In this document: positions 2,394-62,076 of the stretch, in pieces
Layout: the number at the start of each line of letters is the position of its first letter
Numbering within the stretch: the first letter of the stretch is position 1
DNA from: a virus
IMG/VR virus record: IMGVR_UViG_3300037141_000177
Coordinates: 9,972 to 73,971 of that record
Length of the DNA stretch: 64,000 nucleotides
Reading direction: 5' to 3' (one strand)
Program-made: the position numbers and the translations under genes
The notes under the pieces: generated by a model
The model's database searches: none
Seen by the model: only the letters and a program-made list of their open reading frames with translations
Told to the model about the DNA's origin: nothing

Positions 2394-2405
2394 GAACCTC
2401 ACAAT

Positions 2406-2870
2406 ATGGAGGTTCGCGTGAAGATTCGCTTTAGGGACAAACTTAAGAAAGGACCGACGGGCGTGCTGTCCTACAGCGTGTTCCGCAATGGCGTACTGAT
2501 CGAGGAAGTGGAAGATCACAACCTGATCGTCGTCGGTTCGCAAGCCACGCACGCGAACCTGCTCGGTGGCAACGTGGCAAACAGAAGCCTCACGCAGATC
2601 GGGTTCGGTACGAATGCCGCAGCGGTGGCGTTTGCCAACACGGCGCTCACCGGAGCGTACGTCAATAACCTCGCTGCGCCGCTCTATCCAGCGTCCAATC
2701 AGGTGAGTTTCGGGTTCGCGCTTGGCACCGCAGAAGCGAATGGGATCGCCATTTCGGAGTTCGGAATGTTGACCGCCGGAGGCGTGCTGTATTCGCGTCT
2801 GGTTAGGGCGCTCCCCCTTAACAAGGGGCCGGACTTGAGTATGTCCGGATCGTGGACAATCTCTTTCTAA
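2406..2870 (+). CDS. Baseplate / tail-fibre attachment protein
   Basis: HNLIV..G, IGFGT and EANG..ISEFG motifs typical of fibre-attachment proteins. Confidence 0.6.
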   Translation: MEVRVKIRFRDKLKKGPTGVLSYSVFRNGVLIEEVEDHNLIVVGSQATHANLLGGNVANRSLTQIGFGTNAAAVAFANTALTGAYVNNLAAPLYPASNQVSFGFALGTAEANGIAISEFGMLTAGGVLYSRLVRALPLNKGPDLSMSGSWTISF

Positions 2871-2889: not shown

Positions 2890-3708
2890 ATGAAAAGGTG
2901 TTGTGACTGCAATTTAGACTTGCCACGCGAAAACTTTTCAAAGCGATCTGTCGCGAAGGATGGCCTGAAGCCGTGCTGTAAGTCTTGCGACAGCGCTTAT
3001 ATGCGCGCGCGGCGGATCGCTGATCCCGAAGGAGAGCGCCTTCGAGTTAACACCTATCGGTTAGCCAATGACGCGAAGGTAAAAGCGCGGAAAAAGGTGA
3101 GCTACGATCTTGCAGACCCAATTGTCCGTAAGGAAAAGGGCCGCGCATATTACGAGGCTAACAAAGAGGCGCTGGCCGTGCGACAGCGCGCCTACGCCGT
3201 AAAAAACGCAGTGACCGTCGCAGCGGGCCATGCCGCCTACTACCGGCAAAACAAGGCTCGCCTCATCGCGCATGGCGCCGCCTATAACAAAACAAACCCT
3301 GACGTCCGCAAGCGCGCGCAATCAAACTATTCTGAAAAGAATCGTGTTTCTATAAGTGCGAAAGGTGCCGCCTACAGGCGCGCCAATCCGGAGAAGAATT
3401 TCGAACGCGGACGAAAGTGGCGGCTCGCAAACAACGCGCTGGTTAATTCCTACGGGATTCAGAGGCGTGGAATGCGGCTGAAGCGGACTTTGCTTCACGA
3501 TGCTGAGTTACTTGGTCTGGTCGTGCGCGAAGGCTATGACGTAGCCCTTCTCCGCGAGGCAGCGACTGGCATCAAATGGGAGCTTGATCATACCGTCCCG
3601 CTTCAAAGCAAGCTCGTATCGGGGCTTCACAACGAGCACAACCTGCAGGTCATTACCCGTTTCGAGAACCGCAGCAAATCAAACCGTCATTGGCCTGATA
3701 TGCCATAA
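2890..3708 (+). CDS. HNH homing endonuclease
   Basis: N-terminal CxxC..DGL...CKxC, basic repeats, C-terminal DHTVPL..GLH..HNLQVI...N..K.N; appears less GC-rich than flanks. Confidence 0.85.
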   Translation: MKRCCDCNLDLPRENFSKRSVAKDGLKPCCKSCDSAYMRARRIADPEGERLRVNTYRLANDAKVKARKKVSYDLADPIVRKEKGRAYYEANKEALAVRQRAYAVKNAVTVAAGHAAYYRQNKARLIAHGAAYNKTNPDVRKRAQSNYSEKNRVSISAKGAAYRRANPEKNFERGRKWRLANNALVNSYGIQRRGMRLKRTLLHDAELLGLVVREGYDVALLREAATGIKWELDHTVPLQSKLVSGLHNEHNLQVITRFENRSKSNRHWPDMP

Positions 3709-3724
3709 GTCGTGACGCCATGCT
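3709..3724 (+). promoter_or_regulatory. Putative late promoter motif GTCGTGACGCCATGCT
   Basis: Immediately after the HNH stop, upstream of the tail fibre gene. Confidence 0.65.
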
Positions 3725-3747
3725 GTCCTGAACGCTAAGGGACAGAC

Positions 3748-5661
3748 ATGGCAAGCCAACCAGAAGTCAGCAACTACGACGTAGGCGTTTATCAGCTTCA
3801 AACTTCTGACGGGGTTCAGGGTGGCCTCGGCGGTGCCAGCAACACGCCGCTGTTGAACCTTGCGAACCGCACGAACTGGCTTTACACCCAGCTCAATCTC
3901 GTCATATCGGGTGCCACGATCCCGCCGACAGTAGCGGCGTTGCTCAGTCCGATCTTCAGCGGCTCGCCGACTTCGCCGACCCCGGCACTTGGTGACAACT
4001 CGCTCAAGCTGGCCACCACGGCGTTCGTGCAGGGCACGGTGAATGGGGCCTTGTCGCTGAGTGTCGCCGGCGGGGTGAACGTCAGCCTCAGTGCGGTTCA
4101 AGCGGGTAACGGGATACTGATCCTATCGGGCGCGTTGACGGCCAATATCGCCGTGATTGTGCCGTCCGCATCGCGTAAATGGATTGTCCAGAACCTGACA
4201 ACCGGTGCCTTCACGCTCACGGTTAAAACGGCGTGTGGCGGTGGGATCGCGATCACTCAGGGCAATACGCAGACGGTCTGGTGCGATGGCATCAGTGTCT
4301 TTCTCGCGTCGAACGACTTCCCGAGCGTTGCACTGCTCGGCACGCCTACATCGCCCACTCCACCGGTCGGCGACCAGTCGACGCGTATTGCCACGACCGG
4401 CTTCGCCTACACGCTGAAGAACGGCGTCGTGTCCGTGCCGGTTGGTGGCAACGTCGACGTGACGCTCACGCCTGCTCAGTACGGCGTGGGCATCCTGTTG
4501 CTGACTGGCGTGCTCACCGGGCCGATTAACCTGATCGTGCCTGCGCAGGGCGGCACCTACGTCGTTGCCAACAATACGACCGGCGCGTTCGCACTCAACG
4601 TGGGGGCGGGTGGGGCAGGGACTAAGGCGCTCGTGCCACAGGGTTCCTCTGTCGTCGCCTACTGCGATGCGACGAACGTCGTGCTCGCGGGTGCCGCGGC
4701 GACGAGTTCGTTCTCGCTCTACACGTTCACGGCGACCGCCGGGCAGACCGCATTCAACGCACCGTACACGCCTGGAAACATCGTTTTCATGCAAAACGGC
4801 GCCGTGCTGTCGCCGCTAAATTACACAGCGATCAACGGTGCAAACGTCACGCTTAATGTCGGGGCGACGCTCAACGACGACGTGTCGATCATCGCCTTTG
4901 CATCGTTCACCGTAGCAAACGCGCTGCTGCTCGCCGGCGGCACGATGGCGGGGCCGATCATTCATGCGGGGGGCGACACGGGTGTGACGCCCGCGCAGTT
5001 CAATAACTCGACGTTGCTTGCGACGACGGCATGGGTGACACAGTTAGGGAATATTGCGAGCGGCGTCTATCCGTACAACGCGAATACCGGAATCCCCGGG
5101 TCGGCGATTGGCGGCTTGGTTTATGCGTACGGCAGCGCCGCGCTGGCTTTCAACCTCCCAGGCTCCGCTGCCTTTGGAATCCCGGTTGGTGCGCAGATAA
5201 CAGTCCTCAACGCAGCTTCGCTGGCGATGACCTTGTCCTCTGTGGGCACGGACAAAATCAACATTGGGTCCGTTCAGACTGCGGCCATCATCATTCAGCC
5301 TAACGACACCATTACCCTGACCTGGAATGCAACGTCATGGTTCGCCTCTGGCGGCGCCACGATGTTGACGAAATCAGGGTTGTTCGCCTCGTCCATAGCT
5401 GCACCTGGATGGCAGAAGCTTCCGAGCGGTCTGATTATTCAGTGGGGGAGTTACACCACGTCTTCTCAGAGCATCGGCGTGACGTTTCCGCTGGCGTTCC
5501 CGTCCGCCTGCCTCTCGCTGGCGATGAGCGGGAATACTTTGACTTCCGCCGCAATGGTCGGGACTACCTCAATCTCCAGGACGGGATTTACCGCCGTTAG
5601 TTATGCGTCGGGCGGCACTTATGTGGCGGTGACTTCTAGCTACATTGCTATCGGATTTTAA
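3748..5661 (+). CDS. Main tail fibre protein
   Basis: VYQLQTSD.V.GG..G.SN.P...LANRT N-terminus, PT.PTP..GDNS..LATTAFV repeats, C-terminal GWQKLPSGLIIQWG domain. Confidence 0.9.
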   Translation: MASQPEVSNYDVGVYQLQTSDGVQGGLGGASNTPLLNLANRTNWLYTQLNLVISGATIPPTVAALLSPIFSGSPTSPTPALGDNSLKLATTAFVQGTVNGALSLSVAGGVNVSLSAVQAGNGILILSGALTANIAVIVPSASRKWIVQNLTTGAFTLTVKTACGGGIAITQGNTQTVWCDGISVFLASNDFPSVALLGTPTSPTPPVGDQSTRIATTGFAYTLKNGVVSVPVGGNVDVTLTPAQYGVGILLLTGVLTGPINLIVPAQGGTYVVANNTTGAFALNVGAGGAGTKALVPQGSSVVAYCDATNVVLAGAAATSSFSLYTFTATAGQTAFNAPYTPGNIVFMQNGAVLSPLNYTAINGANVTLNVGATLNDDVSIIAFASFTVANALLLAGGTMAGPIIHAGGDTGVTPAQFNNSTLLATTAWVTQLGNIASGVYPYNANTGIPGSAIGGLVYAYGSAALAFNLPGSAAFGIPVGAQITVLNAASLAMTLSSVGTDKINIGSVQTAAIIIQPNDTITLTWNATSWFASGGATMLTKSGLFASSIAAPGWQKLPSGLIIQWGSYTTSSQSIGVTFPLAFPSACLSLAMSGNTLTSAAMVGTTSISRTGFTAVSYASGGTYVAVTSSYIAIGF

Positions 5662-8005: not shown

Positions 8006-8088
8006 CAAATCGTGCGTAAGGCGCACATCGAGGCGGTTGAGGCGGACGTTAAGAAGCTTGGTTAGTGGGTCGGTTCAGGGAGCACTTC

Positions 8089-9508: not shown

Positions 9509-10000
9509 ATGCTTTCGTTTCTAGTTGCCCATTGGGGCCTGTTGCTGGGCGGTGGCGGGGTTCTCGCCGCTGTGGTGGGCCTGTGCGTGCTGGTCGGTCC
9601 TGCGGTGCTGCTGGCGCGCTGGCGGCTCGTCTTAGGCGGCGCAGTGGTGCTCGTGGCCGGGGCGACAGTCGTGTATCTGTGGCTCGCGCTCGAGGCGACG
9701 ACCGCGAAGCTCATCGTCGCGCAGGCGAACTACGCCACGGTCACCGGGCAGAACGTCACCCTTAACGCCGATAACAAGAACCTGGCGGCGCAGACCCTCT
9801 TGCAGAGCAAGTCGATCCAGCTTGTCGCCGATGGTGCGCGGGAGGCCAAAACTGCGGCCGACGCTGCGCTGGCCACCGCCGTCGCGCAGCAGTCCGTCGA
9901 CCAGTCCAGCATCGTCGCGCTGCAGGCACGCATGAAGGATCCCAAAACCAACGCGGGGAGCTGTGATGACGAGATCGCTCGTATTCGGTCCACTTTGTAG
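9509..10000 (+). CDS. i-spanin (Rz-like)
   Basis: N-terminal transmembrane helices, coiled coil, C-terminal Cys; follows the endolysin. Confidence 0.7.
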   Translation: MLSFLVAHWGLLLGGGGVLAAVVGLCVLVGPAVLLARWRLVLGGAVVLVAGATVVYLWLALEATTAKLIVAQANYATVTGQNVTLNADNKNLAAQTLLQSKSIQLVADGAREAKTAADAALATAVAQQSVDQSSIVALQARMKDPKTNAGSCDDEIARIRSTL

Positions 10001-31700: not shown

Positions 31701-31716
31701 GTCGTGACGCGAGACT
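31701..31716 (+). promoter_or_regulatory. Putative late promoter motif GTCGTGACGCGAGACT
   Basis: Intergenic, upstream of the HU-like gene. Confidence 0.6.
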
Positions 31717-43340: not shown

Positions 43341-43356
43341 GTCGTGACGCCAAGCT
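43341..43356 (+). promoter_or_regulatory. Putative late promoter motif GTCGTGACGCCAAGCT
   Basis: Upstream of the terminase-small-like gene. Confidence 0.65.
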
Positions 43357-53760: not shown

Positions 53761-53776
53761 GTCGTGACGCCAGACT
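53761..53776 (+). promoter_or_regulatory. Putative late promoter motif GTCGTGACGCCAGACT
   Basis: Upstream of tagged protein 1. Confidence 0.65.
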
Positions 53777-53801
53777 CGAATGAACATATTCGGGGTATCT
53801 G

Positions 53802-54902
53802 ATGGCTCACGCACTTTCCAGCTTCTCGCGCCCGTTGCTGTTCCTGAAGGCCGCGATGCATCAGGTGTACGTCCCGACCTTCTCGCGTGCCGACGGTGTG
53901 GTGGTGAACGGCCATTACGCGATGCATGCTGCTGGCGGCAACAGGCCGCCTGCGCTGAAGGTGGTTGCTGCGGTGGCAACCCCTGCGCCTGTTCGGAGCG
54001 GTGGCCACGACGCGATCGTGGGGCATTTGGAGGCGATTGCTGCGGCCAAGCTGCCCGCGTCGAATACGAATGCCAAGTCAGTGAACCCGCGGCTTGACGT
54101 GATCGCTGCGGCGCTGAAGTCGGGCGACCCGGGGCTGCTCACGATGATGTCGTACGGTTCGAACAACTACGGGGTCAAAGCCGCGAAGCTGGCGAACCTG
54201 GCGCTCGAGGCGCTTGGCTCGGACGAGCGGGTGTCGCCGGGGCAGAAGGGCGTTCCCGGGTACCGCTCGGATGCACAGGCGGCGGCAGCGAAGGCGCGCG
54301 CCCATGCCGAGCGCACGGTTCATCCGTCGCAAGATAGCCTCATGACGGCGATGGCGAAGCTTGGTGGTGTCAAAAAGTCCGAAGCTATGAAACAGTGGGG
54401 CTACGGCAAGAACGATCTGAAGGGCGCTTACGTGGGCATCAAGCCGGTGTTTTCTTCGCAGGGGTTGAGCGTTGAAAACATGGGCGCGGCGCTGCACGAG
54501 CTGGGCTATCTGCGCAGCGACGAGCATGGGCGCTTCGACGGTCGCGAGCTGGAGGAGCACGTTTCGAATGCGCTTGGCGGTGCCGATCACTTCACGCCGG
54601 ACGGGTTCGTCAACAAGGCGCAGCAGGACCAAGAGGAGCAGTATCAGGGCCTTGGTGCGAGCGACGTAAAGGCGAGCGGCTTCGATGAATTGCCTGAAGA
54701 GGCACAACAACAGATTGAGGAATTCCTTGATGAAAACCCCGACTTCTCAGCCGACGAAATTGCCAGTTTCGAAGGTGCTCAGCGAGTGGCAGACGAGGAT
54801 GACGTCCCGTTTGAGCCACTTGACTTCGGCGCAGCGCAAGGCCACCACCGCGACTTTGGTCAACCTCATGAAAGCTCGGGCGGCAGCGACGTCCCGTTCT
54901 AA
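53802..54902 (+). CDS. Putative virion-packaged protein 1 (LFLKA tag, shared helical domain, acidic tail ending DVPF)
   Basis: N-terminus and an ~80-aa domain are paralogous to 54972..59381. Confidence 0.6.
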   Translation: MAHALSSFSRPLLFLKAAMHQVYVPTFSRADGVVVNGHYAMHAAGGNRPPALKVVAAVATPAPVRSGGHDAIVGHLEAIAAAKLPASNTNAKSVNPRLDVIAAALKSGDPGLLTMMSYGSNNYGVKAAKLANLALEALGSDERVSPGQKGVPGYRSDAQAAAAKARAHAERTVHPSQDSLMTAMAKLGGVKKSEAMKQWGYGKNDLKGAYVGIKPVFSSQGLSVENMGAALHELGYLRSDEHGRFDGRELEEHVSNALGGADHFTPDGFVNKAQQDQEEQYQGLGASDVKASGFDELPEEAQQQIEEFLDENPDFSADEIASFEGAQRVADEDDVPFEPLDFGAAQGHHRDFGQPHESSGGSDVPF

Positions 54903-54931
54903 GCCGGAATAAACCGGCTGCTTGTCTCCGC

Positions 54932-54947
54932 GTCGTGACGGTAGCCT
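54932..54947 (+). promoter_or_regulatory. Putative late promoter motif GTCGTGACGGTAGCCT
   Basis: Promoter and leader nearly identical to 53761-53810. Confidence 0.65.
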
Positions 54948-54971
54948 CGAATGAACACATTCGGGGTTCTC

Positions 54972-57900
54972 ATGGCTCACCTGCACGCTCTGTCCAGTCT
55001 CTCGCGCCCCCCGCTGTTGTTCCTCAAAGCGACGCAGAAAAAGCGGGTGTTCGTTCCTACGTTCACGCGGCGAAATGGCGTGGTCGTGCAGGGACATTAC
55101 GCGATGGTGCATGTCTCCGATGCGCACGACGCTCACAAAATCCTGTCGGGTGAGGGATCGCATTCGCAGAAGGCTGCGCACGCGAAGCTCGTTAAAAAAG
55201 ACTGGTTCCAGGCGTTGCCGCATGACCACCAGCTGCCCGTCCTGCTCGAGCACGCGACCGAGATTCAGGATAAGGCCAGCGCCGGTTCGGTCCTGTCGAC
55301 GCTCAAGAAGAAGGTTCTCGCAGGGCAGAAGCCGTCAAACGCTGAAATGAACGCGTTTGCCGCGGCGCCGGGGGATAAGCAGAAGGCGTTGCTGGGCGAG
55401 TTCACTGCGGGCGGGAAGGGGGCATCGTTTGGCGCGTTGTTTCATCAGCACGCGGCGTCGGTGCCCAAAGTTGCAGAAGTGCCCGCAGTTATGCAACAAG
55501 AGCCTGCGGTGACTGTGGTAGCTGCTCCGGTGCCGGTCGCGCCGAAGGTTGTCGGGGCCACGCAGGCGGCGCCACCTCCTGCGGTGCCGGTGCAGGCTTC
55601 CACGCCCGAATGGAGCGACGAGAAGGGGGCGATCGCCTTGCACCTCGACGCCATCGATAACGCGAAGCTGCCTGATTCGAACACCAACGCCGCGTCAGCG
55701 AATAAGAAGCTGCAGGCCATTGCAGCCGCGACGGCCAAGGGCGACGTGAAGTCGCTTTTGATGATGGGTTACGGGTCGAACAATTACGGCGCGACGGCGG
55801 CGAAGCTCGCCAACCAGTCGTTGGCGCTGCTCGGTTCCACGCATCAGGTGTCCGCTGGCCAGAAGATGGCGAGCCACCCGGGGATGAGCGGAGCGCCTGC
55901 TACGCCGACGGTGGTTCCCACTTCTCCTACCGGGGAAAGCGGGAAAAGCGGGGAAACCGGGATTCCCGCGTCTCCCGCGCCGGCTGGCATTACCACAAAG
56001 CTGAAGCTCGACGGCCACAGCGTGGAGATTGCGCCGGTTGCCGGTGGCAAGTTCTCACTGTCGATCGACGGCACGAAGGAGGGTGAGTACGCGTCGCCTG
56101 GCGCGGCTCAGGCGCACGCACACGAGGTTGTCTACGAGAGCGAGCCGGCCGCGCTCACGCCGACCGTGGTGCCCACGCCTGGTGTTGCAGCCCCAGCGAA
56201 GGACTCGGCAGCGGTCAAGAAGGCGAAGGCGATCGATCCGGCAAAGGTCAGCGCGTGGCTTGCGGCGGTGCCAGGCAAGGCAGACACGTCGCTGTTCGAC
56301 GGTGTTTCGACGAAGGCGAAGGACAAGTTTTTAAAGTGGAAGCAAGCGGTAGGCAAAACGCACATGCCGGAATACAAGGCAGGCTACGTGAATGTCGCCG
56401 TGTCGTCGCTGTATGGGATGACCGATCAGGTGCTGCTGAACAATGGTTCGTTCGTTGCCGTCACCGATATCCTGATGCACGGTGGCTGGGGGCAGGTCGC
56501 GCCGGCCGATCCCGTCGCGATCCAGAAGGCGGCGATCGCGGCTTTGTCTGGCGTGTCGACACCCACAGTCGCGGCTGTGCCTGTCGCGCCAGTTGCGGCC
56601 AAGCCGGTCACAGCGGGACTGCCGCCCATCCCGCTCGGTATCAAGCAGGCGCAGGGCGTGAAGGCCATGAAAATGGCGAAGCTGGGGGACGTCGCGGGGC
56701 TGACGAACCTCCACGACAAGCTGGTCGCGCCGAAGACGAAGGCGTACGTTGGCGAACTGCTCGCGGCTATCAAAAAGGCGCAGGGCGTCTCCGCCGCTGG
56801 CGCCTCGGTTGCGAACTGGGAATTTAACAGCTCTGATCATGGCTTTAGTGGCGCTCCGACGCTGTATCTGAAGAAGGAGGGCGTCGATCACTTCATCGTG
56901 AAAACGCCCGAAGGCGAGTACGAGGTCTACGGCATCGGCTCGGGTGATCAAGAGACGGCCGGCGACGAACCGGAGATATTCGGTTCGAAGGAAGATGTGC
57001 AGGAGTATTTGTCGGGCGCACTTGATGTTCACGTCACGAAGGCGACGCTCGCGAAGCTCGACAGCGGTGCTGATGCTAGTCCGAAGGAAGGCGACACGAA
57101 GCAGGGCGCAGACGGCGCGCTGGTGTTCCAGAACGGGCGCTGGCACAAGCAGGGCGACGTGCTCCCGGTGGTGCCCGTCGCTGTGTCGAAGGCCAAGGTC
57201 ACGCAGCACGTCTATACGAACACCGAGGAAGGTCACAACAAGTTTTGGGCCACTGCAGTCCAAGGCAGTATTTTGCGCACCACGTACGGGAAGATCGGCA
57301 CGAAGGGTTCAGAGACGATGAAGCTTTTCGCGTCTGAAATGCAGGCGTATGAGGCTCAGGCGAAACTGATCAAGGAAAAAACTGCCAAGGGTTACAAGTT
57401 TCAGGATTCCGTCTCGGTGGAGGGCTTTGCGCCTGCTCAGGCGGCTCCGGTCAAGGTAGTGGGCGCTACGGCTGGGAGTGGCTTCGCGATCCCGCCCAAG
57501 CCGACGCCTACCGTCCAGGTGACGCCGAATGCCGGACCGGCCGCGCCAGTGTCGATTGACGCCTGGAAGAAAACGGGCGAGCAGGGCGGCTACAACGAGG
57601 GCGGCACGTACGTGGATCCGCAGGGCGTCGCCTGGTATTGCAAATTCCCGGCCGGCGGTGAAAAGGTCGCGAAGAACGAACTGCTCGCCGGGAAGCTGTA
57701 CGAGCTCGCCGGGGTGGATGTCGCCGCGGTGAAGTTGATCACGCAGGGCGGGAAGGTCGGACTCGCCTCGAAGATCGTCGTGGGCGCGGCGCCGAGCAAG
57801 GCGGCGATGCTCGCTGGCACGGCGCCCGGGCTGCTGTCGGGCTTTGCCGCCGATGCTTGGCTTGCCAATTGGGACGCGGTGGGGAACAACCCGCAGAAGG

Positions 57901-59381
57901 GGTACGACAACATCCTGATCAAGCCGGACGGCTCGGCGGTGCGCATCGATGCGGGTGGTGCGTTGCTTTACGGGGGAGCTGGCGGGAAAAAGCAAACCTT
58001 CACGGACAAGGTGACGGACCTGAAGACCATGCTCGACCCGGCGAAGAACGCACACACGTCGAAGGTGTTCGGGAAAATGACGCCGGCGGATATCGCGGCG
58101 TCGGTGGCGAAGGTCGCGGCCATCGATCCATCGATGATTGCGGCGGTGGTGGAGATGTATGGCCCGGGCAACGGTGAGGAACGCGCGCGCATGGCGGCGA
58201 AGCTGATCGCGCGACAGGCTGACATGCTTGAGCAGTACCCGGCCGCGAAGAAGGCCGCAGAGAAGGCTCAGGCGAAGGCTCCGAAGCCCAAGGTGGAGAA
58301 GCCTGACCCGACGAAGCTGAAGGTTGACGCGTCGCTGTTGCCGCCGATGCACAACTTCATGAACTGGAATGGTTCGGGGAAACCCATTTCAGACAAGCCG
58401 TATGTGGCGCAAAACATCATTGACGAGCAGGCCATTCTCGCGTTCGCGTTGAAGGGAAACCTGGTCGCGTTGAAGGCGTACAAATACCAGCCGGTCGACA
58501 AGCTCACGGGCCAGCCGCTCGGTGAGCCGAAGTCGATGGACCAGAACCCGTCGCAGTACGTGCGCGAGTTCTACGACTCGTGCGTGTCGTTCCTCGAGGT
58601 GGTGGCGAACCCTGCGGAGCCGATGCGCACGTATGACTCGAAAGACGCGCATACCGTCGCGCAGCTTGCGTCGATGTTCAAGCCGTTCGACTACGGTGTG
58701 TCGGTGGCCAGCGCGCCGGCGAACCAGCGGCTCGGCTTCTGGATCGCGTTGGGGGTGGCGAGCAGCCCCGCCAAATTCAAGCCGAAGACGGTCAGCCTGA
58801 AGTTTACGGAGGCCGCGAAGCAGGCGGCATATACGGCCTATACCCTGCTTCCGAAGACGGTTAAAACATTCATCAATGCGGTGCAGTCGTCGGGTTCGGC
58901 CAACCAGCCGTATCGCGACGGTAAAGAAGTCGATCAGCAGGGGCAGAACACGCGCACGGTGCTCGCTGACCTGTACACACACGCTGTTGCGCACGAGGCG
59001 GGGACGACGGTCAACAAGTGGATCAATATGCCCGATTCGATGGTGGCGCAGTTCATCGCGGAGCCGGAGGGCCTGGTGTTCCAGAACCCGGGTTCGATGT
59101 GCACGTCGCAGCACACGTCCAAAACCGCTAATTTCGGCAAGCACCGGGTCATCATCCACTATGCGGACGGGGCCTCTGCGATTGACACGTTCGGCTCGGG
59201 CGATCATCACGGGGAGGCGGAAATCACGACGCTCCCGGGCGCCCGGTATATGGTGTTGAGTCGGAAGATGGTCGCGGACGCCGAACACAGCAATCCGGGC
59301 GCGCAGCGGCTCGAGCTTGAAGTGTTGATGCTGCCGCCGGATGCGACGTATATTGCCAACATTCCCAAGAAGCCAACATGA
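54972..59381 (+). CDS. Large polyvalent protein: LFLKA tag, WGR domain, HipA/PI3K-like kinase, ADP-ribosyltransferase
   Basis: WGR ~57200-57400 (HNKFW..YGKIGTKG..EK..KGY); kinase ~57560-58235; ART ~58990-59340 (MCTS, GEAEI). Confidence 0.7.
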   Translation: MAHLHALSSLSRPPLLFLKATQKKRVFVPTFTRRNGVVVQGHYAMVHVSDAHDAHKILSGEGSHSQKAAHAKLVKKDWFQALPHDHQLPVLLEHATEIQDKASAGSVLSTLKKKVLAGQKPSNAEMNAFAAAPGDKQKALLGEFTAGGKGASFGALFHQHAASVPKVAEVPAVMQQEPAVTVVAAPVPVAPKVVGATQAAPPPAVPVQASTPEWSDEKGAIALHLDAIDNAKLPDSNTNAASANKKLQAIAAATAKGDVKSLLMMGYGSNNYGATAAKLANQSLALLGSTHQVSAGQKMASHPGMSGAPATPTVVPTSPTGESGKSGETGIPASPAPAGITTKLKLDGHSVEIAPVAGGKFSLSIDGTKEGEYASPGAAQAHAHEVVYESEPAALTPTVVPTPGVAAPAKDSAAVKKAKAIDPAKVSAWLAAVPGKADTSLFDGVSTKAKDKFLKWKQAVGKTHMPEYKAGYVNVAVSSLYGMTDQVLLNNGSFVAVTDILMHGGWGQVAPADPVAIQKAAIAALSGVSTPTVAAVPVAPVAAKPVTAGLPPIPLGIKQAQGVKAMKMAKLGDVAGLTNLHDKLVAPKTKAYVGELLAAIKKAQGVSAAGASVANWEFNSSDHGFSGAPTLYLKKEGVDHFIVKTPEGEYEVYGIGSGDQETAGDEPEIFGSKEDVQEYLSGALDVHVTKATLAKLDSGADASPKEGDTKQGADGALVFQNGRWHKQGDVLPVVPVAVSKAKVTQHVYTNTEEGHNKFWATAVQGSILRTTYGKIGTKGSETMKLFASEMQAYEAQAKLIKEKTAKGYKFQDSVSVEGFAPAQAAPVKVVGATAGSGFAIPPKPTPTVQVTPNAGPAAPVSIDAWKKTGEQGGYNEGGTYVDPQGVAWYCKFPAGGEKVAKNELLAGKLYELAGVDVAAVKLITQGGKVGLASKIVVGAAPSKAAMLAGTAPGLLSGFAADAWLANWDAVGNNPQKGYDNILIKPDGSAVRIDAGGALLYGGAGGKKQTFTDKVTDLKTMLDPAKNAHTSKVFGKMTPADIAASVAKVAAIDPSMIAAVVEMYGPGNGEERARMAAKLIARQADMLEQYPAAKKAAEKAQAKAPKPKVEKPDPTKLKVDASLLPPMHNFMNWNGSGKPISDKPYVAQNIIDEQAILAFALKGNLVALKAYKYQPVDKLTGQPLGEPKSMDQNPSQYVREFYDSCVSFLEVVANPAEPMRTYDSKDAHTVAQLASMFKPFDYGVSVASAPANQRLGFWIALGVASSPAKFKPKTVSLKFTEAAKQAAYTAYTLLPKTVKTFINAVQSSGSANQPYRDGKEVDQQGQNTRTVLADLYTHAVAHEAGTTVNKWINMPDSMVAQFIAEPEGLVFQNPGSMCTSQHTSKTANFGKHRVIIHYADGASAIDTFGSGDHHGEAEITTLPGARYMVLSRKMVADAEHSNPGAQRLELEVLMLPPDATYIANIPKKPT

Positions 59382-59854
59382 CGCCTGACAACCCTGAATT
59401 CTCGCCCACGGGCCTGTACCTCGACGATCTGGTGTCGACGGGCAAGCCGTCGCTGGGCGTTTTCCCGATCGTCTCGCGGATCGTTCGCGAGTACGTCAAG
59501 AACGTGCTCGAGATTCGGAGCGCCTTCAATTTGGGGCAGGGCGGGGCGGATGCGCCACTGGTCGAGATCGAAGCTGCCGCGCGGCATTGGGGCAACGTGT
59601 TCCTCGGGCGCGACAACCGGTTCGATGCGCAGCCGTGGAATACCCCTAACCGGCTTGGCATGACGCTGACCATGCTGTTCCCGGAGGAAACCAAGCATTA
59701 CGGCGACCCGGGCGCAGCGGCGTTCATGTGGCTTGCAGGGCAAACCCTGCAGGCTTCGCAGTTTATGGAGGGTGGCGGCTCGGAAGACGAAGCGCGCGCG
59801 AAGCTCGAGCCGGTAGTGGAGGACTTCGAGCAACGTCTGATAGGGATCAAATAA
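59378..59854 (+). CDS. Hypothetical protein translationally coupled to the ART gene (candidate immunity protein)
   Basis: ATGA overlap with the upstream stop; acidic, 158 aa. Confidence 0.5.
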   Translation: MTPDNPEFSPTGLYLDDLVSTGKPSLGVFPIVSRIVREYVKNVLEIRSAFNLGQGGADAPLVEIEAAARHWGNVFLGRDNRFDAQPWNTPNRLGMTLTMLFPEETKHYGDPGAAAFMWLAGQTLQASQFMEGGGSEDEARAKLEPVVEDFEQRLIGIK

Positions 59855-59860
59855 AGGCGG

Positions 59861-59876
59861 TTCGTGATGCTACATT
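59861..59876 (+). promoter_or_regulatory. Degenerate late promoter motif TTCGTGATGCTACATT
   Basis: Same spacing as the other copies, upstream of tagged protein 3. Confidence 0.5.
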
Positions 59877-59905
59877 GGGGAGAACTAGCCAATTAGGTGT
59901 CACGA

Positions 59906-61603
59906 ATGTCCGCACCCGTCCTGTTTCTGAAGGCTCACGTCAAGACGTTCACTCGCAAGGACGGGGTGGTCGTGCAAGCGCACGAGACGAAGGTGAACGC
60001 CAAGGGCAAGCCTGCCGCGGCTCCCTTAAAGTCGAAAATTGCGCAGTGGGCGGGCTGGAACACGAAGGCACCGCTCGATCTCGGCACCGCCACGGTGGCC
60101 GTAGACCATATTCCCGAACCCAAGAAGAAGGTTGCGGCCAAGCCGACCGGCTGGCCGTTCGTCGACGAGCAGGTCAAACCCGAACCCAAAGCTTCGAAAG
60201 TGGTTAGCGCCAAGTACGGCGCTGGTGCCGCTCGTGGCAAGCAGAGCGGTCTGTTCGGGTCAAGCTACGGGAAAGGGGCTTACCCGAACGCGATCACCCA
60301 TCCCCAGCGCGGCGAGGGCGGTAAGCCCGTCAAGGTCAACGAGCCGTCTGCGGCGTCCGACGCGGCGACGTGGAGCGATCCTGCGGCTGTCGCCGTGTTC
60401 GTTCCCGGTGGCGATGCGCCGGCGGTGCTGAACGGCGTGGCGCTCGCGCCGTGGCTCGACCATCCGAAAACGCTCGAGGGCTGGGATCTGGTGCCCGGGC
60501 AAATGGACGACCTGGTTGAGCCGGATATGGTCCTGAAGGGCAAGGAGCCTGCGGCCGGGGTGGTGATTGAGGAGGCGGACGGGCGCATATGGATGGTCAA
60601 GCCGTCGAATGGCTTCGCGGGTTACGTCACCACGTTTCCGAAGGGCCACGCCGATGACGGTCTGTCGATGCAGGCTACGGCGATCAAGGAGGCATTCGAG
60701 GAATCCGGCATGCAGGTGGAAATCACCGGCTTGATCGGGGACGTTGAGCGCGGCCAGACCATGACTCGCTACTACCGTGCGCGCCGTGTGGGCGGCTCGC
60801 CGACGGCGATGGGGTGGGAGTCGCAGGCGGTGGTTCTGGCGCCGCCCGGGGCGGTCCACGGCGAGCTGAACCGGCAATACGACCGCACGGTCGCCTCGCT
60901 CGCGGGTATCACTTCTCCGGAGGGGCTGGTGGAGACAGCGGACGATTGGGAAAAGACGGGAAAGAACACCGGCACAAACCCGGGGGGCTTCTATACAGAC
61001 CCGGCTGGCGAGCACTGGTACGTCAAGGTGCCGAAGTCGACGGCTATCGCGAAAAACGAGGTGCTCGCCGCGAAGCTATACGAAGCGGCGGGGGTGACGG
61101 TGCCCGAGTTGAAGCACGTCACGCTGGGCGGAAAGATGGCGATTGCCTCGCAGATCATTCCCGGCCTCTCGAAGCTGAAGCCGGGAGCCGACGTCGCGGG
61201 GGTGATGGACGGCTTCGCGGTTGACGCGTGGCTCGCCAATTGGGATGTGGTCGGGCTTGAGCACGACAACCTCCTCGAGGACGTGCTCGGGCAGGCGGTG
61301 CGCGTCGACGTGGGCGGCTCGCTGCTGTTTCGCGCGCAGGGCGAGCCGAAGGGTAAGGCGTTTGGGCACGAGGTGGGCGAGCTCGACACGCTCACGAGCG
61401 GCAAGAACCCGCAATCCGCCTCGGTGTTCGGGGGGATTACGCACGACGAGCTGATGGCGGGCGTGGCAAAGGTCGCCTCGGTACCGGTGGACACCATTCG
61501 GGCCGCGTGCGAGACGTACGGTCCGGGGACTGCCAAACAGCGCGTGGCGCTCGCCGATACGCTGATTGCTCGCCGGGAATATTTGCTTAATCTGCAACAA
61601 TAA
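59906..61603 (+). CDS. LFLKA-tagged Nudix hydrolase plus HipA/PI3K-like kinase
   Basis: Nudix box PKG.....L.......KEA.EESG (60644-60709); kinase 60941-61590 paralogous to the one in the large protein. Confidence 0.75.
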   Translation: MSAPVLFLKAHVKTFTRKDGVVVQAHETKVNAKGKPAAAPLKSKIAQWAGWNTKAPLDLGTATVAVDHIPEPKKKVAAKPTGWPFVDEQVKPEPKASKVVSAKYGAGAARGKQSGLFGSSYGKGAYPNAITHPQRGEGGKPVKVNEPSAASDAATWSDPAAVAVFVPGGDAPAVLNGVALAPWLDHPKTLEGWDLVPGQMDDLVEPDMVLKGKEPAAGVVIEEADGRIWMVKPSNGFAGYVTTFPKGHADDGLSMQATAIKEAFEESGMQVEITGLIGDVERGQTMTRYYRARRVGGSPTAMGWESQAVVLAPPGAVHGELNRQYDRTVASLAGITSPEGLVETADDWEKTGKNTGTNPGGFYTDPAGEHWYVKVPKSTAIAKNEVLAAKLYEAAGVTVPELKHVTLGGKMAIASQIIPGLSKLKPGADVAGVMDGFAVDAWLANWDVVGLEHDNLLEDVLGQAVRVDVGGSLLFRAQGEPKGKAFGHEVGELDTLTSGKNPQSASVFGGITHDELMAGVAKVASVPVDTIRAACETYGPGTAKQRVALADTLIARREYLLNLQQ

Positions 61604-61621
61604 TTGTGCGTTAGCCGCAAA
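61604..61621. promoter_or_regulatory. Putative operator TTGTGCGTTAGCCGCAAA
   Basis: Matches TTnTGCG-N6-GCAA, upstream of the rightward small-ORF operon. Confidence 0.55.
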
Positions 61622-61704
61622 TAAAGACACGCGGAAACGGTTTTTGTGGGGATATGGATGGCAGTATGCATTCGTCAACTTCCCCACCAAACCGAGGTTT
61701 CCCC

Positions 61705-62076
61705 ATGTGGATCTGTCTGAATCAAGCGTTTCTCTCCATCGTTTCAAACCCTGCCGACAAAGCCACGCTGCTCGTGCGCGCTCGCCGTGTTGGCGACCTC
61801 GAGCATGTGTTCGGTGCTGACACGGTGGTCACCACGATCCCGGGCCGCGACTATCAATTCCGCGCGTTCCTGCCGCGTGAGCAGGTGGGTCGCGTCATCG
61901 CCGCAAACGTGGAGATGATCTCGTATCCCAACTTCAAAAGCTCGGTGAAGGACGACTCGCTGCATGACGCGTACATGGCGATTTGGCACGTCATGGCCGA
62001 TCTGCAACCGACGGCTCCCTATGCCGATGCGCCCCGCAAGAATTTTCGTAAGCATCCTGTTCGGACAACGCGATGA
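61705..62076 (+). CDS. Conserved hypothetical protein
   Basis: MWI....FLSIV, LLVRAR..GDL, DY.FRA, YPNFK..V, HDAY..W; GAGG RBS. Confidence 0.65.
   Translation: MWICLNQAFLSIVSNPADKATLLVRARRVGDLEHVFGADTVVTTIPGRDYQFRAFLPREQVGRVIAANVEMISYPNFKSSVKDDSLHDAYMAIWHVMADLQPTAPYADAPRKNFRKHPVRTTR

Follow-up and report, generated by a model that had tools for sequence, protein, structure and literature searches.

Three effector genes with a common N-terminus

The window analysed here covers the final 64 kb of a virus record of 73,971 bp (IMG/VR record IMGVR_UViG_3300037141_000177), and towards its end lie three plus-strand open reading frames (ORFs), encoding the proteins P0001, P0002 and P0003, that share an N-terminal motif, here called the tag (Table 1). 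A sequence-only reading of this region had proposed that the three are effectors packaged in the virion by means of this tag, and the ORFs and their common N-terminus were found as it had quoted them. The tag spans about 30 residues of the form hhhhK[A/S]-H-V-x-x-[Y/F]-T-[R/K]-x-D-G-x-x-V-x-x-H and heads all three proteins. In pairwise BLASTP comparisons the tag of P0001 was 71% identical to that of P0002 over 41 aa (E 7e-13), and the tag of P0003 was 53% identical to that of P0002 over 34 aa (E 2e-5). No further tagged ORF was detected in the 74-kb record with a hidden Markov model (HMM) of the tag.

The domains that had been described as shuffled between these proteins were also recovered by BLASTP. 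A domain of approximately 100 aa is common to P0001 and P0002 (residues 49-149 and 202-298, at 53946-54248 and 55575-55865; 55% identity, E 4e-23), whilst a domain of 225 aa, with a kinase fold according to a structure model, recurs in P0002 and P0003 (44% identity, E 5e-43). P0001 matched no Pfam or PHROG family and contains no recognisable catalytic domain; a homologue is encoded at 4143-5585 of one collected relative (L007). Homologues of the giant P0002 carry an ADP-ribosyltransferase (ART) annotation in phages ST4, Dolphis and fHe-Yen8-01. Its gene has its true start at 54972 (ATGGCTCAC), the upstream ATG of the ORF list having no in-frame counterpart in gene 1. In an AlphaFold2 (AF2) model of residues 1-340 of P0003, residues 7-31 form short beta strands with a predicted local distance difference test score (pLDDT) of about 81-85; a disordered stretch rich in Lys, Ala and Pro (residues 31-122, pLDDT about 40) comes next, and the Nudix domain then follows. 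Since the modelled tag is a small beta unit separated by some 90 disordered residues from the Nudix domain, this arrangement is what one would expect of a docking unit that is independent and flexibly tethered.

Table 1. Positions of the tagged genes, their domains, neighbouring genes and regulatory features within the window
Feature	Coordinates	Strand	Description and basis
Late-promoter-like motif GTCGTGACGCCAGACT, gene 1	53761..53776	+	Exact copy
Leader hairpin, gene 1	53775..53794	+	CUCGAAUG/CAUUCGGG; RNA fold; near-identical in gene 2
P0001	53802..54902	+	366 aa: tag (residues 10-39), ~100-aa 'LPxSNTNA' domain (residues 49-149), acidic C-terminal part
Tag of P0001	53829..53918	+	Tag HMM, 81.7 bits; alignment
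Late-promoter-like motif, gene 2	54932..54947	+	GTCGTGACGGTAGCCT, 3 mismatches
Leader hairpin, gene 2	54943..54968	+	RNA fold -22.3 kcal/mol, z -4.6
P0002	54972..59381	+	1469-aa polyvalent-type giant: tag, domain shared with P0001, WGR, kinase-like domain, VIP2-like ART
Tag of P0002	55005..55100	+	Long form with KKRVFVP insert; tag HMM and alignment
Shared domain in P0002	55575..55865	+	Residues 202-298; BLASTP against P0001
WGR domain	57213..57398	+	P0002 residues 748-809; Pfam PF05406, E 5.7e-14
CtkA/HipA-like kinase, P0002	57558..58229	+	Residues 863-1086; 44% identity to P0003 domain; fold evidence from paralogue
VIP2/C3-type ART region	58242..59378	+	P0002 residues 1091-1469; STS (CTS) and ExE (EAE) kept
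P0004	59378..59854	+	158 aa; ATGA overlap with ART end, translationally coupled
Probable decayed promoter motif, gene 3	59861..59905	+	Inverted repeat with gene 3 start region; fold -18.9 kcal/mol, z -3.0
P0003	59906..61603	+	565 aa: tag (residues 4-26), Lys/Ala/Pro-rich disordered linker, Nudix (214-329), kinase-like domain (346-561)
Tag of P0003	59915..59983	+	Short form; tag HMM and alignment
Nudix domain	60545..60892	+	P0003; Pfam PF00293, E 8.8e-12
CtkA/HipA-like kinase, P0003	60941..61588	+	AF2 pLDDT 95.3; Foldseek
P0005	61705..62076	+	Real start probably MWICLN...; neighbour of module

Cargo domains of P0002 and P0003

The WGR domain of P0002 scored 52.4 bits, against a Pfam gathering score of 22. 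The kinase-like domain shared by P0002 and P0003 remained below the Pfam HipA_C threshold (15.3 bits against a cut-off of 30.5), and neither single-sequence nor profile searches of PDB sequences retrieved a solved kinase; the fold search, in contrast, did find kinases. With the AlphaFold model built from 50 homologues (pLDDT 95.3), the best Foldseek match was the Helicobacter kinase CtkA (3akk; E 7.7e-7, TM 0.59-0.63), followed by many protein and lipid kinases. Eight residues were invariant in the 50 sequences (K36, E47, D102, N107, D109, D116, N117 and D130), with a DAWLANWD loop, and the ATP-binding Lys, the catalytic Asp/Asn loop and the metal-binding Asp are all present.

A profile of the C-terminal 379 residues of P0002 matched VIP2 (PDB 1qs2) with an E-value of 3.8e-4, across both the STS and ExE motifs, and 4 of 39 homologues of this ART region matched Pfam ADPrib_exo_Tox on their own. 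Residues S289, E325 and E327 were invariant in 21 sequences. The motif-1 Arg is replaced by Lys in the window protein (P0002 residue ~1340) and in six close relatives, whereas distant homologues keep the Arg.

In the Nudix domain of P0003 the REUXEE glutamates E262, E265 and E266 do not vary; Leu takes the place of the first Glu of GX5E, and Lys that of the Arg. The closest solved structures were Ap4A/Ap6A hydrolases and MutT1 (fold matches at E 1e-8). The Nudix assignment of the sequence-only reading was borne out by Pfam, but a specific ADP-ribose pyrophosphatase was not, the domain being closest to ApnA/MutT-type hydrolases, which leaves ADP-ribose hydrolysis as only one possible activity.

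The same cargo behind MuF or behind the tag

In the viral loci collected, the kinase domain was present in 91 distinct ORFs. The N-terminus of these ORFs was a MuF domain in 30/91 and the tag in 24/91, with a variant hhhhK[A/S] prefix in at least 6/91; another 11 were cut by a contig end and the remaining 20 began in other ways. All eight MuF-headed kinase ORFs tested by Pfam carried an N-terminal Phage_Mu_F domain, and 5/8 also had a C-terminal ADPrib_exo_Tox ART. MuF is a component of the head and typically has packaged effectors fused to it (PMC9503650). As judged from these sequences, the same cargo is carried by either MuF or the tag, and this exchange of kinase and ART cargo between the two suggests, by analogy, that the tagged N-terminus is a vehicle; we regard it as the strongest indirect argument for that role. 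Some kinase and ART proteins in three loci (L024, L025 and L039) start with another hairpin-like N-terminus (..KHSKDYYRVVNGKLVHTSGHTYNV..), with neither hydrophobic prefix nor MuF, which may represent a third kind of carrier.

Promoter-like motifs and leaders

The 16-mer GTCGTGACGCCAGACT was matched 11 times at <=3 mismatches against 0.85 expected, a 13-fold over-representation, and none of 100 shuffles reached 11. Exact or near-exact copies at 2378, 3709, 7990, 31701, 43341, 53761 and 54932 are intergenic, on the plus strand and co-directional with the next gene, and one more lies upstream of the window start. The copy at 3709 precedes a tail-fibre gene, and that at 43341 a TerS-like gene and methyltransferases. 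Each tagged gene had been credited with its own copy, a degenerate one at 59861; this holds at 53761 and 54932, and 59861 keeps the TCGTGA core only. As two relatives (L005 and L009) hold the canonical motif at the equivalent position, the sequence at 59861 is probably a decayed copy. The GTCGTGACGGTAGCCT variant of gene 2 also occurs 5' of the giant gene in L004 and L007. In nine relatives TCGTGACG is found ~35-40 nt 5' of the giant gene, and in several it lies directly 5' of TerL; that the same motif precedes both supports, at the level of sequence, co-expression of the giant gene with the packaging genes.

The near-identical leader reported for genes 1 and 2 proved to be part of a longer match that takes in the promoter, the leader hairpin and the first ~45 codons of the genes. 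Over about 200 columns the mean column identity of the DNA is 84%, and both genes have the ATGGCTCAC start. Copies of TCGTGACG are each followed a few bases 3' by a leader hairpin, both in the window (2394-2415, 3717-3752, 8012-8026, 53775-53794 and 54943-54968) and at the giant genes of L004-L022. The stem sequence varies between genes and phages and the arrangement is kept, so this may be a conserved 5' leader structure in late transcripts of the phage group. A different pairing was seen at the Nudix gene, where the motif pairs with the start-codon region (..CGTGACGC...GCGTCACGATG) in the window (59861-59905), in L005 (about 9915-9967) and in L009 (about 9945-9997). Such an inverted repeat could hide the gene 3 start site in read-through transcripts.

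Distribution of the tag

A profile of 36 positions, built from 42 tags, was scored against 1.84 billion representative proteins, and gave 1,713 matches at E<=1e-3, of which 160 were at <=1e-10. The best 150 of the 1,713 by summed score, a sample biased towards multi-copy proteins, were divided into two classes. Class a, with prefix and hairpin (LLxLK[A/S]HVxGYTRKDGTxVxxHDDKR), accounted for 101/150. Its single-copy tags started <=15 residues from the N-terminus in 32/38 proteins against 4.6 expected, and 63/101 members were multi-copy, with 2-5 copies, the later ones located between cargo domains at a median spacing of 264 residues. A signal-peptide-like start was seen in 2/101. Pfam domains in 90 class a proteins included InPase (10), ART-PolyVal (7), Zeta_toxin (3), NUDIX (3) and AAA_33 (3), as well as DUF6900, ADPrib_exo_Tox, PBECR3, RadC, GNAT, LPD3, RelA_SpoT and Mrr_N. 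The sequence-only reading had expected a tag HMM to retrieve diverse cargo; it did so, and the cargo is the effector repertoire of polyvalent proteins.

Class b (49/150) has the hairpin core only (VxGYTRxDGTxVxGYxRS), repeated in low-complexity proteins; 19 of these begin in a signal-peptide-like manner, and in one a eukaryote-type kinase is present. In these representatives (P0012, P0014, P0020, P0075 and 45 others) the core, VxGYTRxDGTxVxGYxRSxP, is repeated in tandem, and it is widespread among cellular proteins that are secreted or of low complexity. Since the core alone recurs in non-phage proteins, the hairpin is, on sequence grounds, a generic small repeat, and it is the hydrophobic-Lys-Ala/Ser prefix that makes the phage form. 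The idea of a strictly N-terminal tag, as originally proposed, was dropped, for internal copies were found (up to 5 per protein in polyvalent giants); the core alone is common in non-phage secreted proteins.

A strict prefix pattern had 17 matches, of which 1 was confirmed, in 185,579 prokaryote genomes (596 Gb), and 274 matches, of which 26 were confirmed, in IMG/VR; it is commoner in the latter, though the IMG/VR pattern was one residue shorter and the counts are not strictly comparable. In the new viral loci, clusters of 2-4 tagged genes adjoin genes for TerS, TerL (phrog_675) and portal (phrog_12). Near TerS and TerL in one of them (L026:12079-13824) is a 582-aa ORF with two full tag copies (residues ~34 and ~445), which looks like a fusion of two tagged units. 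BLAST searches of 50,697 deposited phage genomes with the 35-residue tag retrieved only the Dolphis-like group, including Bordetella phage PHB04. The motif is contained in no Pfam model, and no description of it was found in two papers of the Aravind group (PMC5512222, PMC9503650) or by a literature search for the motif string.

The conserved module and its neighbours

The usual gene order in 80 IMG/VR loci found with P0003 was an optional P0001-like gene, the giant tagged gene, a P0004-like gene of ~160 aa, a tagged Nudix gene with or without kinase and a P0005-like gene; the start of the P0004-like gene overlaps the stop of the giant, and the order of the last two genes is variable. In relatives, this module adjoins the TerS, TerL (phrog_675) and portal (phrog_12) genes, and in L022 it is situated between TerS and TerL.

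A P0004 homologue was present in 44 loci, directly 3' of the giant gene. A complex of P0004 with the ART region was predicted with a score of 0.49, the best control scoring 0.00, and across runs the contacts agreed to >=73% with a partner pLDDT of >=79. The mark for a complex was reached by 58/80 solved complexes and 2/110 mismatched pairs; the band at <=0.60 holds only 7/80 of the former and both passing mismatches, and support for the P0004-ART complex is consequently weak. It is no more than a reasonable guess that P0004 is a co-packaged ART partner or an inhibitor or immunity protein.

P0005 belongs to a viral hypothetical family (MWIxLNxAFLSIV...) with a homologue in 67 loci. Its fold was also seen inside bacterial proteins carrying NUDIX (ESM Atlas, TM 0.80 by query), and the modelled fold hints at a functional link between P0005 and the neighbouring Nudix enzyme. 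A P0005-like protein was considered as the universal partner of the tag and dropped, three tag clusters (L098, L087 and L105) having no P0005-like gene in their gene maps.

In phage fHe-Yen8-01 (OR620963), gp129 is the giant 'ADP-ribosyltransferase toxin', gp130 is P0004-like and gp131 is a tagged Nudix protein; all three are annotated 'particle associated protein'. In papers from the Skurnik laboratory this term denotes proteins that LC-MS/MS detected in purified particles (e.g. PMC7316996).

The phage and its relatives

The window encodes a CI-like repressor, RecT/exonuclease, replication genes, several DNA methyltransferases and baseplate and tail-fibre genes, and the 10 kb preceding it contain tail sheath, tube and baseplate genes together with a 961-aa ORF that has no PHROG match and is probably the tape-measure protein. 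Gene annotation of the window and the preceding 10 kb identified no portal, capsid or large terminase in the 74-kb record. Given the CI-like repressor, the tail sheath, tube and baseplate genes and the absence of portal, capsid and TerL, the record is an incomplete contig of a temperate myovirus from which the head genes are missing. Of the annotated genes only the CI-like repressor and the replication genes bear on a phage-plasmid state, and they do not show one. The record starts inside the tail sheath gene. By synteny with the relatives, portal, capsid and TerL should follow the effector module, some 15-20 kb being missing.

The proteins are distantly related (31-57% identity) to those of a ~90-kb myovirus group that includes Pseudomonas phages Dolphis, Jeremy and Touem01, Yersinia phage fHe-Yen8-01, Aeromonas phage ST4, Morganella phage Mecenats66, Escherichia phage ECML-606-1, Enterobacter phage phiT5282EW and Bordetella phage PHB04. 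No DNA-level match for the region was obtained by megablast against phages and plasmids. Between the baseplate and tail-fibre genes, at 2890-3708 of the window, an HNH/endonuclease VII-like gene lies between the motif copies at 2378 and 3709, as if inserted into a late operon.

Proposed role and alternative explanations

Taken together, the features and domains recognised in the sequence, the conserved regulation and gene context and the spread of the motif lead to an explanation that we favour with modest assurance, namely that the genes form an effector module of a temperate myovirus. The tagged, polyvalent-type proteins would be made late, together with the virion parts, would be loaded into the particle and would reach the next host with the DNA. 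P0002 would deliver a VIP2/C3-type ART preceded by WGR and a CtkA/HipA-like kinase, P0003 a Nudix hydrolase joined to another copy of the kinase, and P0001 would be a third delivered protein; P0004 would probably bind the ART end and travel along. The tag is envisaged as a module whose hydrophobic strand, with Lys-Ala/Ser at its end, leads into a beta hairpin (..[Y/F]T[R/K]xDGxxVxxH) and then a flexible basic linker. It would most likely act as the MuF domain does for the same cargo in other phages, and like the N-terminal sequences that target T4 internal proteins and P1 DarB, tying the protein to a head component at assembly, perhaps as a strand added to the partner's sheet, such that the protein is enclosed and later ejected.

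In this respect the sequence-only reading gained ground as regards virion-packaged effectors, through the promoter shared with tail-fibre and TerL genes, the multi-domain effectors, the particle-associated homologues and the cargo borne by MuF, and the tag is a candidate packaging signal. From its sequence, a loading function for the tag is plausible, with chances close to even at best. Somewhat more tentatively, hhhhK[A/S]-HVxGYTRKDGTxVxxH may be a general, portable virion-loading (perhaps ejection) signal of a large tailed-phage lineage and an alternative to MuF fusion.

Several observations weigh against this explanation. Copies of the motif also lie inside proteins, where modules meet, and a signal for N-terminal targeting alone would have no use for these; the hairpin core, being a repeat in secreted or low-complexity cellular proteins, would have a more general binding or structural property. 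The virion evidence consists of annotation in one distant relative, in which the untagged gp130 and gp133 are also particle-associated and the giant, likewise so annotated, has a variant of the tag only; the canonical motif is hence not necessary, nor is it proven sufficient. The promoter motif also fronts non-structural units (at 31701, and at 43341 before methyltransferases), so that late timing is only inferred.

The most serious alternative, which we judge unlikely but deserving of weight, is that the proteins are packaged and the motif is an inter-module element, either a processing site or a module that binds nucleic acid or a host hub after delivery, incorporation being directed by another region or by the P0004-like partner. 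The internal copies that flank cargo domains would be explained in this way, as would the use of the hairpin core as a generic repeat outside phages, the Lys/Ala/Pro-rich linkers after the tag and the giants of fHe-Yen8-01 and ST4, which keep the hydrophobic prefix only and have a different hairpin; moreover, it has been proposed that polyvalent proteins are processed to give separate units (PMC5512222). However, the prefixed form is strongly N-terminal (32/38, as above) and the tag sits where MuF sits for the same cargo. For a processing site in particular, cleavage 10 residues from the N-terminus would free nothing useful unless a targeting peptide is removed, and Pfam identified no protease domain in the tagged proteins.

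It is improbable that these are ordinary late enzymes which serve host takeover or counter-defence in the producing cell and are not packaged, their shared N-terminus reflecting a duplicated cassette of promoter, leader and start. The DNA identity between the 5' portions of genes 1 and 2 is what a recent duplication would give, but the tag is conserved as protein sequence among contigs and cargoes that diverge strongly, far beyond what a local duplication would give. Unpackaged enzymes would also sit poorly with homologues annotated as particle-associated, with the fusion of the same cargo to the head protein MuF and with the genes consistently lying beside those for terminase and portal. A toxin-immunity or lysogen-benefit cassette, with an ART toxin and P0004 as immunity protein expressed from the prophage for competition or abortive defence, appears very improbable, even though the ART is of toxin type (VIP2/C3), a small, tightly coupled gene follows it, whose product has weakly supported predicted binding, and the CI-like repressor marks a temperate phage. 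The promoter motif is common to structural genes and TerL, no secretion signal or export domain was found in the module by Pfam, and the entire set, Nudix and kinase among it, has been kept in phages that were deposited as isolates.

Targeting signals of head proteins are known from a few model phages (T4 and P1), in which they are short, idiosyncratic and unrecognisable by sequence elsewhere. If the tag is such a signal, injected effectors could be listed directly from phage and metagenome sequence, the motif marking an injected proteome of over 1,700 protein clusters, many with unknown cargo domains. It would be a pointer to uncharacterised domains that are likely to be anti-defence or host-takeover enzymes, and would provide a simple means by which foreign proteins could be loaded into phage heads. 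The combination of cargo here is itself unusual, with WGR and a VIP2-type ART with a motif-1 Lys, a duplicated CtkA-like kinase and a Nudix enzyme.

Comparison with known systems

Polyvalent proteins are large and join disparate effector domains (ART, kinase, Nudix-type); their genes lie amid late or packaging genes, and the prediction is that they travel in the virion and are injected (Iyer, Burroughs, Anand, de Souza and Aravind 2017, PMC5512222; the 2022 survey of NAD and ADP-ribose systems, PMC9503650). The proteins described here resemble them in having >=2 disparate effector domains per polypeptide (WGR, kinase and ART in P0002; Nudix and kinase in P0003) and in their location among late or packaging genes, as indicated by the motif shared with structural genes and by TerS, TerL and portal neighbours in relatives. 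They differ in that P0001-P0003 had no LPD, MuF, MPTase, ART-PolyVal, PBECR or InPase match (Pfam, E<=0.1); the hallmark domains InPase, ART-PolyVal, PBECR3 and LPD3 were found in other tag-sharing proteins. The kinase here is CtkA/HipA-like, whereas that of PMC5512222 is a C-lobe-less S/T/Y kinase, and WGR is mentioned in neither PMC5512222 nor PMC9503650 (0 occurrences). A short motif shared at the N-terminus or between modules did not turn up in PMC5512222 when its text was searched for linkers, repeats, hairpins and short motifs.

MuF-fused effectors are similar in their kinase and ART cargo, in their position near portal and terminase genes and in the arrangement of an N-terminal carrier with C-terminal effectors. 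Unlike the ~110-aa MuF domain (Mu F / SPP1 gp7), the carrier here is a ~30-residue motif and linker, with an additional ~100-aa domain in the giants, and the tag has no sequence similarity to MuF by Pfam.

In phage P1, the N-terminal 30 residues of DarB suffice for capsid targeting of a reporter (PMC9024508). Both systems involve a temperate myovirus and a giant multi-enzyme protein adjoining head genes (here, in the relatives), and the P1 signal lies within <=30 N-terminal residues. As with the N-terminal capsid-targeting sequences of T4 IPIII and P1 DarB, the tag is N-terminal, occupies <=30 residues and stands ahead of unrelated cargo. By eye, the first 50 residues of DarB (MNKLSMGVFRCSSVSEILKY...) bear no visible likeness to the tag. 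The three proteins here share one motif, whereas no consensus for the Dar proteins emerged in the P1 study (PMC9024508). The enzymes also differ, being methylase and helicase in P1 Dar and ART, kinase and Nudix here.

The internal proteins and Alt of T4 possess a capsid targeting sequence that is cleaved by the prohead protease. To our knowledge this sequence does not occur repeated inside proteins, unlike the tag motif. T4 has both a short N-terminal signal and a head-packaged ADP-ribosyltransferase that is injected with the DNA (summarised in PMC9503650 and PMC9024508), and the present system would have the same pairing, although no relation in sequence is to be expected.

Dolphis-like myoviruses have a syntenic arrangement of giant ART protein, ~160-aa protein, tagged Nudix, P0005-like protein and then terminase. 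In two isolates, fHe-Yen8-01 and ST4, the Nudix proteins lack the extra kinase and no P0001-like gene is annotated directly 5' of the giant gene. With respect to the R-S-E ARTs (VIP2/C3/Alt type), P0002 differs in its Lys for the motif-1 Arg, with STS and the catalytic ExE retained. Virion-packaged polyvalent effectors with ART, Nudix and kinase domains are already known (PMC5512222, PMC9503650); what is apparently new is a recognisable, conserved motif that is common to several effectors of one phage and to very many proteins elsewhere, and that alternates with MuF as the carrier.

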